Origin: Candidatus Cloacimonadota bacterium
Lineage (GTDB): Bacteria; Cloacimonadota; Cloacimonadia; Cloacimonadales; TCS61
Assembly: GCA_021108315.1 (NCBI GenBank)
Contig: JAIORE010000190.1
Span: 2,736 to 66,735, forward strand
Length of the DNA: 64,000 nucleotides
Reading direction: 5' to 3'
Every line of letters starts with the position of its first letter. Position 1 is the first letter of the stretch. The position numbers were made by a program, and so were the translations under genes. A model generated the notes under the pieces. The model saw only the letters and a program-made list of their open reading frames with translations, was not told the DNA's origin and did not search any database. Below are positions 14,462-18,800 of this stretch, piece after piece.

Positions 14462-14851
14462 ATGAGTTTGTTCTATAATATCGTGAAACGATTTAATCCG
14501 GCAAAACCGGCAGAACCCCCTAAGTACCACGCAGTTATCAAAAGTGATGGAATAGTAACTATCAGTGATATAGGAAAGAGGATCACTGCAAGTAGTGCCT
14601 TTACCCGGGCAGATGTAATTGGTTTGATGTATGGCTTGATGGATGTAATCGCAGATGAATTGAAGGATGGCAAGATAGTCCGTATTGATCCGTTGGGAAC
14701 TTTCACTTTGAAAGCAAGAAGTAGAGGAGCAGAAGACCCGAGCAAATTCACATCTCGCCGGATTGATGGAGTGAAGCTGCATTTTTCTCCTCATAAGGAA
14801 TTTCTCGATGAATTGAGAAATGTTCATTGGAAAAAATGGAAGCCTTTTTGA
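14462..14851 (+). CDS. HU-family (Bacteroidota-type, extended) histone-like DNA-binding protein
   Basis: ITASSAFTRADVIGLM...ELKDGKIVRIDPLGTFTLK...VKLHFSP pattern; AAGGAG RBS. Confidence 0.88.
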   Translation: MSLFYNIVKRFNPAKPAEPPKYHAVIKSDGIVTISDIGKRITASSAFTRADVIGLMYGLMDVIADELKDGKIVRIDPLGTFTLKARSRGAEDPSKFTSRRIDGVKLHFSPHKEFLDELRNVHWKKWKPF

Positions 14852-14895
14852 AGATTTGATAAAAAATATTTGCCGATATTATGTGAATTAGGAAT

Positions 14896-14960
14896 TTGGA
14901 TTTAATTTGATTTAATTTGATTTAATTGGATTGGATTGGATTGGATTGGATTGGATTGGA
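14896..14960. repeat. Short tandem repeat: (TTTAATTTGA)2 followed by (TTGGA)7
   Basis: TTGGA occurs seven times at 14926-14960, preceded by 10-bp units in the same 5-bp phase. Confidence 0.95.
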
Positions 14961-14964
14961 TATT

Positions 14965-15099
14965 CAGCACAGTCAATTCGCTATGCTCAAAGACAGTGCT
15001 AATAATCTATAAGCCCTTTGGGCTAAGGAAAAACATTGATTGAGCCTTTCTCCGAAGGAGATAAAGACCACAGCAAAGGGTTGCGTAGTTACCCTTTGC
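14965..15099. repeat. REP/REPIN-like composite palindromic unit (left copy)
   Basis: Hairpins AGCCC-TTT-GGGCT, TCTCC-GAA-GGAGA and GCAAAGGGT-loop-ACCCTTTGC; diverged direct repeat of 15733-15866. Confidence 0.85.
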
Positions 15100-15218
15100 T
15101 TTGCAACGAGGCAACGACGAAATGTTGAAATGACGAAACATTGAAAATAATGAATCAATAACCGTTGCAACGATACAACGATGAATCAATGAAATCATAA
15201 AACAAAAAAGGAAAAAAT

Positions 15219-15674
15219 ATGCCCCAATCATTATCAAAAATATCATTACACATCGTATTTTCCACAAAATATAGATTCGGATTTTTTACAGATAGAGATA
15301 TAAGAAACGATGTTCATTCATATATTGCAGCAATTTTTAACAAAAGAGGAGCAACAGCAATAAAAGTCGGAGGTGTAGCAGACCATATTCATATTTTATG
15401 TTTACAATCAAGAGAGGAATTGATAAGTAAAACAATTGGTGAGGCAAAGCGTTCATCAAATTTGTGGTTGAAAGAAAAGTATGATATATTTTCAAATTTC
15501 AGATGGCAGAAAGGTTATGGAGTTTTTTCAGTAAGTGAATCTCATATCAATAGAGTAACAAAATATATAGAAAATCAGGAAGAGCATCATTATAAAACAT
15601 CATTTAAAAAAGAATATAGAACATTATTGAAAAAATATAAAATTGAATATGATGAAAAATATGTTTGGGATTGA
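15219..15674 (+). mobile_element. tnpA: IS200/IS605-family HUH (Y1) transposase TnpA, RAYT-like; no tnpB
   Basis: MPQSLSKISLHIVFSTKYR, HUH motif DHIHIL, WQKGYGVFSVS and catalytic Tyr in KYIENQEEHH. Flanked by REP-like units. Confidence 0.92.
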
Positions 15675-15732
15675 ATGTTCACCTCTTTCAGAGGAGATTG
15701 TTAAAATTTTATTACTCCCAACGCCCAATCCC

Positions 15733-15866
15733 CAGCACAGCCTATTCGCTGCACTCAAAGACAATGCTGACATTCTATAAGCCCTTTGGGCTAAAGATAA
15801 GACAATGCTGAATCTATTCTCCAAAGGAGATAAAGAATATACAATAGGGTTGCGCAGCTATCCTAT
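15733..15866. repeat. REP/REPIN-like composite palindromic unit (right copy)
   Basis: Same three hairpins as the left copy with changed stem bases (ATAGGGT-loop-ATCCTAT); overlaps the start of the next ORF. Confidence 0.85.
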
Positions 15867-18800
15867 ATGTGTAATCCTCCTCCTATTCCTCCTGATCTCT
15901 ACAATTCTCTTCTCAAAAACAACAAGATTCTCCTCGCCCATCATCAGGCAGCAATCCTTTCACAATGTGGAAGCGGATTCTTCACTATCCCTCATATATC
16001 ATCCGATTATCATAAATTCCGAAACAGTTATATCAGATTCGATTCTATTAAACAAACATATTGATTACAAGATAGATTATCAAAAATTTGAGTTGATTCC
16101 TTTCAAACCATACAAAAACCTCGGAATAGAATATATGATCTATCCACCAGATATACTGAGAGAATTTTCGCTATATGAATATATTGATATCAAAGACACT
16201 TTAAATTTCACACGGAAAACTAAAAGAAAGCAACTTTTTTCCTCAACTACAAAACTAAATATCACTGGTTCAAAAACTATTTCGGTAAGTGTAGCAAATG
16301 ATGCAGATTTCAGCTTGGATCAATCATTATTCCTAAAGATGAGCGGAGAACTCAGCAACAATATGATGATCGAAGCCCAGCTTTCCGACAGCCAATCACC
16401 TATAACCCCAGAAGGTGATACTCGCGAACTCAGCAGTTTGGATAAGATATTTCTCCGTTTGTATGGCAAACAATATGAACTCTCTTTTGGTGATTTGGAG
16501 ATGGAATTTACCGATACATACTTTCTTAATTATACTCCAAAGTTCGAAGGATTGAAAGCAGGTTGGTTCAAACAAAACAAGTTTTATGGTGCTCTGGCAA
16601 TCTCCAAAGGGAAAAAGACATCCGTAACATTCAATGGGATTGATGCAAATCAAGGACCCTATTATTTGCAGGTTGAGAACAATACGGGAGTGAGGGTTAT
16701 TCCCGGTTCGGAAAGCGTATTTTTGGATGGAATATCCTTAGGACGAGGGTCTGATTATGTTATAGATTATGCTGATGGAAGTATCATCTTTGCTAATAAA
16801 CATTTTATCTCCGACAAATCGTTCATTCAGGTTACATTCCAATATTCTGATGATAATTATAAGCAAAATATGTATCTAACTTCTTATGAAATAAAGCTTA
16901 CTGATAAGGTGAAGCTAAATTTTTCACTCATCAATGAACAAGATGATAAGAATAATCCTCTGGAATATGTTTTTACAGATGCTGATCTGGATAGCCTGAA
17001 AAATGCCGGTGATACGGCAACCATCGGGCAAGGAATCTTTGAAGTTGAAGAAGGCATCGGTGCTTATGAACTCTCCGAAACAGGAGATTATTATGTTTAT
17101 ACAGGCTCTGATTCTACCGGAAGTTACAATATCTTCTTTGTATATCAGGGATATCAGCAGGCTGATTATGAAATTTCCGATTTTGGAGATTATTATATTT
17201 ACGTTGGCGATAATGAAGGTTCTTATATCATTGGTAAGAGTTTAAAAGCTCCCCAGAATAAAACGAACCTTGATCTCAAGTTTTCTTTTGAGAATGACTT
17301 GCTAAAAATATACTCAGAAGGTTTTTATTCAAATCTTGATAAAAACACTTTTTCTAGTATTGATGATAAAGATAATAATTCATTTGCGACTTTTTCAGAG
17401 ATTCAAATATCACCTGATCTGGATAAGATCAAGCCTGTTCTCACTTTGAACTACCGAAAGATTACAGATAATATTGCTACTTTTAGCGAGTTTGTTGATC
17501 CTCTTGATAACTTTGAAATGATTCAAATAGCAGATTCCCTTGCCAGTGATGAGGTTGGTGCAAAACTCAGTTTGAACTTTTCAGAAATATATATTCCATC
17601 TTGGAAGGTAAAGCATAAATTAGTAAAAAACTATGCTAAACAGAACTTCTTTGAATGGAAAAACAAGATAAATCAAACACACATTATTCCTGATTTAAAT
17701 TACAGATTATTGAATATAAATCAGAGTTTCTCTGATAAAAATGATAGTTTTATTGTGAAAGAGAGTAATCTTTCCCTGCACGATTTGAAGACATCTTACT
17801 TGATAAAGAAAATAAGGATAGGAACAAATTACAATTATAGTAAGAACAATACATCATACATATATCCTCCTGATTTTGAATTTACAAAAGTACAGCATAA
17901 ATATTTTTTTAAAACTGAGAACATATCCAAGTTTTCCGGAGAATTATTTTATCTCGAAGCAAAAGAAGATTCGCTATATTCTCATGAAGAAAACAAACAC
18001 ACCGAAAAGACAAATACGATCGGTATAAAATCACTTTTGAATACAAAGTCTCACTCCTTCCAGATAGCCTTATCTCATATTGTAATTAACGATACGCTCT
18101 CAAAGTCGTATGATCTAATTGATTTCTCCACTCGAAACTATTTTCTCAAGGAAGCGATCACCATTCGGACAAGCTATGGAATCAAGAATTTACAGTTTTA
18201 TCCAAAGATCAAAGAGTTCATCTATGTTGGAACAGATAATGGCTCTTATTATGCTGATACAACTTATGTGGGATTGGGAGAAGGCAATTATGATTGGGAG
18301 ATTACCGGAACAAATTACAAAGATCCTGAATTATCTGTAGAGGTTAATGCAAATATTCGAACTTTTATCACTCCTAAAATGATAATGGATAACTATCTCA
18401 AGAGATTTCAGTGGGAAACTCACCTTCAAATTATAGAAAATTCAAAAGCTACAGATCGAAGGAAAGTCTATTATTTTCACCCCGATTTCATAATGAATGA
18501 TGAAGAAACATTGCATGGACAACATATTTTCAGAAATATATTCTGGTATGAACTCATTCCGCATAAATTGACTCATAGAACTACTTTTGAGCGAAAGAAA
18601 ACTCTAGATAATCGTTATCAAGATATAGATAAAACTCTTTCAGATGATTGGGAATTTTCCTTAACACTATCTAAATTCTATAAAACAAATTTGGAATTGA
18701 TCTATGAAAATAAAAAGCAGGAAGAGAGCCATTATAATTCTAAAACAAAGACAGATATGATAAATTTGGATATCAGAAACCGTTTATTCAGTGAAACGAG

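Follow-up and report, generated by a model that had tools for sequence, protein, structure and literature searches.

The TnpA transposases of IS608 and ISDra2 act at subterminal hairpins, and TnpA-REP of Escherichia coli acts at repetitive extragenic palindromic (REP) sequences; this biochemistry is well established. Another branch of Y1 transposases, TnpA-Y1 subclass 1.2, was defined by the motifs DH[IV]H, WQ and YIKNQKEHH, a median length of 148 amino acids (aa) and 1.7 copies per genome at 36% identity, and was recorded by Quentin et al. (2018) as 'REP: no', generally without the terminal structures of IS200, and as occurring mainly in Cyanobacteria and Bacteroidetes (PMC6006769). We infer that the group labelled 'RAYT-like IS200 Group 3' by Bertels et al. 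(2017), which has no duplicates and abundant flanking 16-mers (PMC5581495; RAYT, REP-associated tyrosine transposase), is probably the same clade. A structured motif that will also concern us, Acido-Lenti-1 (Rfam RF01687), was reported by Weinberg et al. (2010; PMC2864571) from Acidobacteria and Lentisphaerae, in some cases close to group II introns. Here a locus is described in which a lone Y1 transposase gene, tnpA, lies between two repeats of about 135 bp at positions 14965-15866 of a 64,000-nucleotide window (contig JAIORE010000190.1, positions 2,736 to 66,735, of assembly GCA_021108315.1 from a Candidatus Cloacimonadota bacterium). We consider it likely that this locus is a worn, single-copy member of a widespread and undescribed pairing, that of a subclass-1.2, IS200-like transposase of single-stranded DNA (ssDNA) with its own cognate hairpin modules.

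The product of the tnpA open reading frame (ORF) matches Pfam Y1_Tnp (E 1.9e-23) and, just above the cut-off of 55 bits, NCBIfam transpos_IS200 (58.8 bits). Its characteristic residues are D55-H56-I57-H58, W96-Q97 and the catalytic stretch Y116-IEN-Q120-EE-H123-H124 (DHIH, WQ, YIENQEEHH), corresponding to the DH[IV]H, WQ and Y---Q--HH of subclass 1.2, and its length is close to the ~148 aa of that subclass. Among solved structures, those closest to the protein are IS200/IS605 transposases, from ISDra2 (2fyx, 2xm3; E ~6e-5) and IS608 (2a6m); no match to E. coli TnpA-REP appears even when E values up to 10 are allowed, and the protein is accordingly placed in the IS200 class. Copy number is likewise that of subclass 1.2: the genome holds three further subclass-1.2 paralogues, on contigs C79, C1 and C20, which are distant (35-41% identity), and no close or near-identical copy, besides one classic IS200 on contig C250 and several weaker Y1 matches. 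Judged by motifs, hidden Markov models (HMMs) and Protein Data Bank (PDB) matches, TnpA is a subclass 1.2 enzyme of the IS200 class and not a classical RAYT.

The evidence that such genes carry repeats of their own comes from the family as a whole. When the 350 nt upstream of each homologous gene were compared with the 350 nt downstream, flank-to-flank repeats (E < 1e-3) were found at 55 of 74 loci from many phyla and in none of 76 control windows shifted within the same loci; they are also present at most homologues in Cloacimonadota relatives. Across phyla the flanks are mirrored, running toward the gene as an outer B hairpin, an A hairpin, a spacer and an inner B hairpin, which the start or stop codon follows or precedes by a few bases. 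The outer B hairpin is typically GCCC-TGAAA-GGGC followed by GAAATA, with a stem of 4-5 bp and a GAA loop. The hairpin stems vary by lineage (GCCCT/AGGGC, TCCCT/AGGGA, GCTCT/AGAGC, GTCCC/GGGAC, GGGCT/AGCCC, and CCTCT/AGAGG at the focal locus) and the GAA loop and the tail do not change. Of 164 flanks, 59 have a perfect 5-bp GAA hairpin no more than 70 nt from the gene end, where chance is estimated at ~0.001 per flank. As far as sequence comparison goes, flank repeats are a family property of subclass-1.2 genes, contrary to the published description of the subclass. The preliminary description of this locus had suggested that its architecture might be undescribed in the lineage, and the literature searched indeed describes no such repeats either for this enzyme branch or for Cloacimonadota.

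At the focal locus the two direct repeats (136 and 134 bp) are 84% identical across their first 68 nt and 78% across 132 nt, and find each other at E 3e-23 in a BLAST search against the whole genome. Folded as ssDNA, each gives four separate small hairpins, here named X, C, B and A; a single long hairpin per 135-bp unit, as expected of REP doublets forming hairpins (REPINs), was considered and is not supported by this fold, and the dispersed population typical of REPINs is lacking too. C and B, whose 27-nt arms are 70% complementary, make up an inverted doublet; between X and A there is no complementarity. The B sequence is the same in the left copy, in the right copy and at locus L044, the closest orthologue, and the 5′ arm of A aligns to AGCACAGGGTTGCGC of orthologues at 63-67% identity. 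Several elements of the preliminary description are borne out by this anatomy, namely the lone IS200-type gene between diverged direct repeats, the inverted doublet with its TAxAGA tail, a further CCTCT-TTC-AGAGG hairpin past the stop codon, and periodic CAACGA units, which prove to belong to a ~64-nt internal tandem duplication in the spacer upstream of tnpA. That spacer has no second copy elsewhere in the genome. Within it, at 15162-15171, lies a perfect 10-bp palindrome, CGTTGCAACG, which could be an operator or part of a promoter region. A compound microsatellite, (ATTTG/ATTTA)n and then (GATTG)n, occupies 14886-14964 and abuts the left end of the left repeat.

The order of the hairpins is not that of a simple pair of mirrored flanks. 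Past the focal stop codon, the sequence aligns as a canonical right flank with the 63-67% orthologues L045, L048 and L050, in the order inner B′, A′ (which is X) and outer B′ (which is C). Upstream of the gene, B and A correspond by alignment to a left flank's outer B and A; no inner left B is present, its place being taken by the A-rich spacer. Each 135-bp repeat is therefore composed of [A′][outer B′][outer B][A], a right flank (R) joined to a left flank (L), and the locus reads R.L - tnpA - R.L. By this alignment, X and C of the right repeat are the true right flank of tnpA, and its B and A are a displaced, extra left-flank module. The coordinates are collected in Table 1.

Table 1. Features of the tnpA locus, in window positions. 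A prime marks a module of the right-flank type.
Feature	Position	Strand	Description	Basis
Left repeat	14965..15100	+	Junction unit: X (= A′) + C (= outer B′) joined to B (= outer B) + A	Alignment to orthologue flanks
Hairpin X, left	14966..15000	+	Stem AGCACAGTC/GACAGTGCT with one A.A mismatch; conserved 17-nt loop ATTCGCTATGCTCAAA	ssDNA fold
Hairpin C, left	15012..15024	-	AGCCC-TTT-GGGCT; on the minus strand AGCCC-AAA-GGGCT, then TATAGA; outer-B type, directed leftward	
Hairpin B, left	15049..15067	+	TCTCC-GAA-GGAGA with TAAAGA tail; outer B of the family, GAA loop, directed at tnpA	
Hairpin A, left	15072..15100	+	AGCAAAGGGT / 9-nt loop / ACCCTTTGCT	ssDNA fold
Spacer	15101..15218	+	118 nt, A-rich, CAACGA units; ~64-nt internal tandem duplication; position of the family's inner B hairpin	
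tnpA	15219..15674	+	151 aa, TnpA-Y1 subclass 1.2	Motifs, HMMs, PDB matches
Inner B′	15675..15694	-	Fifth hairpin, directly past the stop codon (CCTCT-TTC-AGAGG at 15682-15694); on the minus strand CCTCT-GAA-AGAGG + TGAACAT, the canonical family form	
Right repeat	15733..15866	+	X 15734-15768 and C 15780-15792; B 15818-15836 and A 15844-15866	
Candidate TTG start of 1111-aa outer-membrane (SprA-like) gene	15850..15852	+	In hairpin A of the right repeat	Orthologue N-termini

The junction layout is not peculiar to this genome. It recurs in the distant homologues L064 (192 nt, 98% identical), L051 and L053, and it is reminiscent of the way in which REP pairs alternate around tnpA-REP in E. coli (PMC6006769). 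At L075 (2177-2210), from a Chryseobacterium metagenome-assembled genome (MAG), the second R.L unit past tnpA runs into the opening 10 codons of tnpA (MGQSLVKNYI), beyond which the sequence is unrelated; the presence of these codons in the second left module points to a head-to-tail tandem duplication with a truncated second copy.

Both protein and modules appear to be maintained. L044 (85% aa identity) lies on a 929-bp metagenome contig beside a different gene, and shows the order [C][B][A]-spacer-tnpA-[B] as at the focal locus. Between the two, dN/dS is 0.145 at a dS of 0.57, and tnpA is under purifying selection. The C-B-A modules are 78.6% identical and synonymous sites only ~60%; given this and the low dN/dS, protein and modules both appear constrained.

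Sister systems of the same subclass have spread their modules without the gene. The C79 paralogue (C79:15512-15973; 41% identical to the focal protein) has canonical mirrored B-A-B flanks, and at least six gene-less derivatives of it occur in the genome (C75:4560-5060, C81:3230-3660, C249:3600-4030, C395:1330-1680, C1:18900-19430 and C56:640-1050). Because all of these share one internal deletion that keeps the last seven tnpA codons, a single deletion derivative must have been amplified, in the manner of a miniature inverted-repeat transposable element (MITE). In G042, the Pyrinomonadaceae genome that carries homologue L099, 26 hits to RF01687 were found, many of them as convergent pairs 100-150 nt apart; six such pairs align with the tnpA locus, precisely without the ORF, and have unrelated flanking sequence.

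Two other Y1 genes of the focal genome deserve mention. The paralogue at C1:77852-78301 has the HuH motif D-H-I-Y, with the second His replaced by Tyr, in an otherwise open frame flanked by ~240-nt direct repeats that are 81-82% identical, and may be a catalytically altered copy. The IS200 at C250:3816-4268 belongs to subclass 1.1 (DHVH, WT, YVKNQ); a 65-nt segment downstream of it matches dozens of contigs, often at their ends, which suggests that this element is multicopy and fragments the assembly.

The occurrence of RF01687 hits at these loci was followed with the Rfam covariance model, whose threshold is 37 bits. At L108 (56.3 and 38.1 bits) and L099 (44.7 and 41.7 bits) the model matches the module made up of A and outer B in both flanks of tnpA, and at L064 it scores 31.1 bits twice; at the homologues the matches lie on the strand directed away from the gene. 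The focal genome itself has one hit above threshold (C318:144-189, 41.7 bits), and the C79 paralogue and its derivatives score 23-31 bits. RF01687 was found in 10 of 41 Cloacimonadota genomes, at up to 55 and 50 copies, and subclass-1.2 tnpA genes are present in 8 of those 10 compared with 10 of the 31 others (Fisher p = 0.012), a co-occurrence that is indicative only, since related genomes are not independent. No paper tying Acido-Lenti-1 to a Y1 transposase was found in the literature searched. In one complete Cloacimonadota genome, several of 55 Acido-Lenti-1-like hits on G027:C1 form tandem arrays with a period of 87-88 nt (e.g. 1477480-1477699 and 1247004-1247752).

Several observations weigh against the pairing of TnpA with its flanking modules as the explanation of the focal locus. 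First, whole-genome BLAST and mismatch-tolerant motif searches found the focal repeat only as the two full flanking copies and one 61-nt partial copy, C31:6243-6303, which comprises X and C and in which the X loop is kept and the stem compensated as CCAGCC/GGCTGG. Its sub-motifs occur nowhere else in the assembly at up to two mismatches. The source assembly is itself a MAG (4.7 Mb, 31.5% G+C, 456 contigs, 95% complete), from which copies of the repeat could escape detection. Second, the RF01687 model finds no match at the focal modules (14700-16100) even at E ≤ 10, and other Rfam models give chance hits only. Third, L044 has no right-flank modules past its stop codon and its gene is nevertheless intact, so its own flanks may be dispensable for the enzyme. 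Fourth, a tandem origin of the focal junction units is drawn by analogy with L075. Fifth, the covarying stems that the preliminary description took as a sign of selection on structure have to be read with caution at this locus. The four helices are indeed 85.9% paired, compared with 30-44% when partners are slid, in an alignment of the two flanking copies with the 85% orthologue and the partial copy on C31; however, the pairs altered on both sides number only three, a count that 76 of 500 shuffles also reach, so that the local covariation is not significant. The convincing covariation is that of the wider family and not that of the two focal copies.

Two candidates for further copies were set aside. 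At C8:26952, a sequence close to the inner B hairpin has the look of coding sequence and is probably due to chance. An exact-pattern scan of Joint Genome Institute (JGI) metagenomes for the B hairpin with its tail gave 16 hits, all of them coincidences in coding sequence or ribosome-binding sites (RBS), and none near a tnpA.

The small number of copies bears directly on the REPtron-like character proposed in the preliminary description, in which a genome-wide count of REP copies had been called for. That proposal stands as regards layout, a lone single-copy Y1 gene within structured repeats, and fails as regards identity: the enzyme is not a class-2 RAYT, the hairpins lack a GT[AG]G foot and the 95%-complete assembly has no dispersed REP population of this repeat. 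A lone Y1 gene with palindromic repeats on both sides is what a classical class-2 RAYT with REP or REPIN sequences would present, and some homologues are labelled 'REP element-mobilizing transposase RayT' by JGI, which we take to be a general COG name for Y1 transposases. The motif test nevertheless refutes such an assignment, with YIENQ in place of Y---NP and no match to E. coli TnpA-REP at E ≤ 10, and neither GTAG nor GTGG at the foot of any of the four hairpins (in the family, A hairpins have TAG or CAG before them instead). So does the dispersal test, in which two copies and one partial copy contrast with the tens to hundreds expected. We therefore regard a classical RAYT as extremely improbable. 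Among the observations that the preliminary description had named as counting against itself, an IS200-class protein and a lack of dispersed copies were found, whereas multicopy insertions with standard ends were not.

This last result speaks equally to the notion that the locus is an ordinary active IS200 insertion sequence whose left and right ends are the repeats. The transpos_IS200 score, the IS200/IS605 proteins as nearest structures, and the MITE-like derivatives amplified from the sister paralogue are all in keeping with it. Yet the focal gene is single, and the genome contains nothing near-identical to it; where W[TS] and Y---Q are expected, it shows WQ and Y---Q--HH; its flanks are junction-type direct repeats of 135 bp rather than a left-end/right-end pair, with the inner left hairpin missing; and the true IS200 of the same genome, the subclass 1.1 element on C250, is quite different. 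We consider an ordinary IS200 quite unlikely.

Could the repeats instead be only a scar, left by a local segmental duplication and a later deletion, with no present function, so that the hairpins are relics? The duplicated left flank of L075 with its 10 tnpA codons, the non-significant local covariation, and the X stem of the right copy, which is degraded to four of seven pairs as read by eye from the alignment, would all fit such an origin. It has, however, only a small chance of being right. The arrangement is common to the 85% orthologue across a dS of 0.57, the modules are better conserved than synonymous sites, B and C are identical or nearly so in all copies, and distant lineages have the same junction layout, with up to 98% identity. 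Taken together, the focal unit reads from its sequence as a sedentary and partly decayed member of the family whose enzyme would still be functional.

Downstream of the right repeat lies the gene for a SprA-like outer-membrane protein, and its start appears to fall within the repeat. Orthologue N-termini follow a pattern of Met, 3-6 residues, a hydrophobic stretch and YFSPII, which fits either TTG 15850, the likely start, or ATG 15805, an alternative also inside the right repeat; the 1057-aa gene call of the record puts the start at GTG 15967, at the cost of the signal peptide. As both candidate starts are within the repeat, the displaced left-end module would supply the start region of the outer-membrane gene. 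This gene is single-copy in 39 of 41 relatives. An empty-site search among them found none with the HU gene or tnpA upstream of it, and for that reason synteny yields no pre-insertion state. In one relative (L132, G008:C13), the ~250 nt upstream of the SprA-like orthologue contain packed small hairpins, CACCACAATTCATTGTGGTG and CACCCGATTAAAATCGGGTG, that resemble the flanks of the C1 paralogue of the focal genome.

The position of the repeats relative to these genes raises a further alternative, that they act as RNA and not as transposase substrates, either as a shared 5′ leader or small RNA (sRNA), similar to Acido-Lenti-1 and governing how both tnpA and the outer-membrane gene are translated, or as terminators or insulators. 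Each repeat copy is just upstream of a plus-strand gene start, hairpin B includes AAGGAG, the likely TTG start of the next gene is within hairpin A, and related modules are filed as sRNA in Rfam. In the family, moreover, 7-13 nt separate the inner B hairpin from the ATG that follows it, a placement comparable to that of the stem that occludes the RBS in IS200 (PMC4513863). Against this, the modules are mirrored 3′ of the gene, a place in which a leader would serve no purpose; gene-less doublets are found in either orientation and amid unrelated sequence; the partial copy on C31 runs opposite to its neighbouring genes; and a scan for sigma-70 promoters and intrinsic terminators gave nothing above shuffled expectation. 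An RNA-level side role of the hairpins, such as occlusion of the start region as in IS200, is possible by analogy, but it is insufficient because mirrored 3′ modules and gene-less doublets would be left unexplained. As the full explanation, a function in RNA seems unlikely.

Under the pairing that we favour, TnpA, through its HUH motif and Tyr116, would bind the B and A hairpins folded in ssDNA at replication forks, and would cut and rejoin the DNA beside them as the TnpA proteins of IS608 and ISDra2 and E. coli TnpA-REP do. Such cleavage and rejoining could move the cassette or its gene-less derivatives. The focal R.L - tnpA - R.L arrangement would resemble a piece of a head-to-tail tandem array or of an alternation like that of bacterial interspersed mosaic elements (BIMEs). 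The sedentary state of the focal locus would then correspond to the replacement of the inner left hairpin by an A-rich spacer, the divergence of the module types from each other and the failure of the repeat to spread. A wider proposal, whose chances we judge to be about even, is that Acido-Lenti-1 is not an RNA gene but the ssDNA hairpin partner of subclass 1.2, the two making up a third phylum-spanning REP/RAYT-like system of IS200-class origin; that R.L repeats record head-to-tail or circle-junction intermediates; and that the displaced left module supplies the start codon of the outer-membrane gene.

If the pairing holds, it would give a function to an abundant Rfam family that has gone unexplained since 2010, and would correct the published picture of subclass 1.2 as lacking cognate repeats. 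It would also mean that a REP/RAYT-like lifestyle, with a single-copy enzyme gene and scattered gene-less hairpin doublets, arose in the IS200 class as well as in classical RAYTs, so that the domestication of such systems could be compared between two independent lineages. To this the focal locus would add a decayed end-state, in which the protein is selected, the ends are worn, the repeat has not spread and a conserved host gene has taken one module into its start. The anatomy of the locus, the family-wide architecture, the gene-less mobile derivatives of sister elements and the purifying selection on the protein are all direct observations.

Set beside the systems already described, the focal locus shares with published subclass 1.2 (PMC6006769) the motifs DH[IV]H, WQ and Y---Q--HH, a length of ~150 aa, a conserved C-terminal tail, low copy number and paralogues near 36% identity, and differs from it in having hairpin modules, where the subclass is listed as 'REP: no', and in its host, a member of Cloacimonadota rather than of Cyanobacteria or Bacteroidetes. 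With the IS200/IS605 elements (IS608, ISDra2, IS200) it has in common the HUH/Y1 core. Subterminal hairpins are recognised as ssDNA in IS200/IS605, and the wider focal family has a hairpin at the start codon as IS200 does; unlike those elements, the focal gene is not multicopy, is not accompanied by tnpB, has end hairpins that are mirrored instead of lying on the same strand, and encodes an extra C-terminal HH domain. RF01687 differs in its A loop of 4 nt, compared with focal A loops of 9 and 17 nt, in its longer linkers, and in being catalogued as an sRNA motif with no transposase link; it resembles the focal modules in its A hairpin, its UAU-containing linker and its small hairpin with a UUC loop (GAA on the other strand), and it flanks subclass-1.2 genes at L108, L099, L064 and C79. 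From REPtrons, which are RAYT/TnpA-REP genes bracketed by REP, BIME or REPIN sequences in E. coli and Pseudomonas (Nunvar 2010, PMC2817692; Bertels & Rainey 2011, PMC3116915; details in PMC6006769), the focal unit departs in having a class 1 and not a class 2 enzyme, no GT[AG]G foot, two or three small GAA-loop hairpins per module, no dispersal and direct, junction-type flanks. Its layout is best read as REPtron-like, although it is not a REP system in this genome: as in REPtrons, a single-copy Y1 gene sits within alternately oriented, palindromic and gene-specific modules, and the sister systems scatter gene-less doublets.

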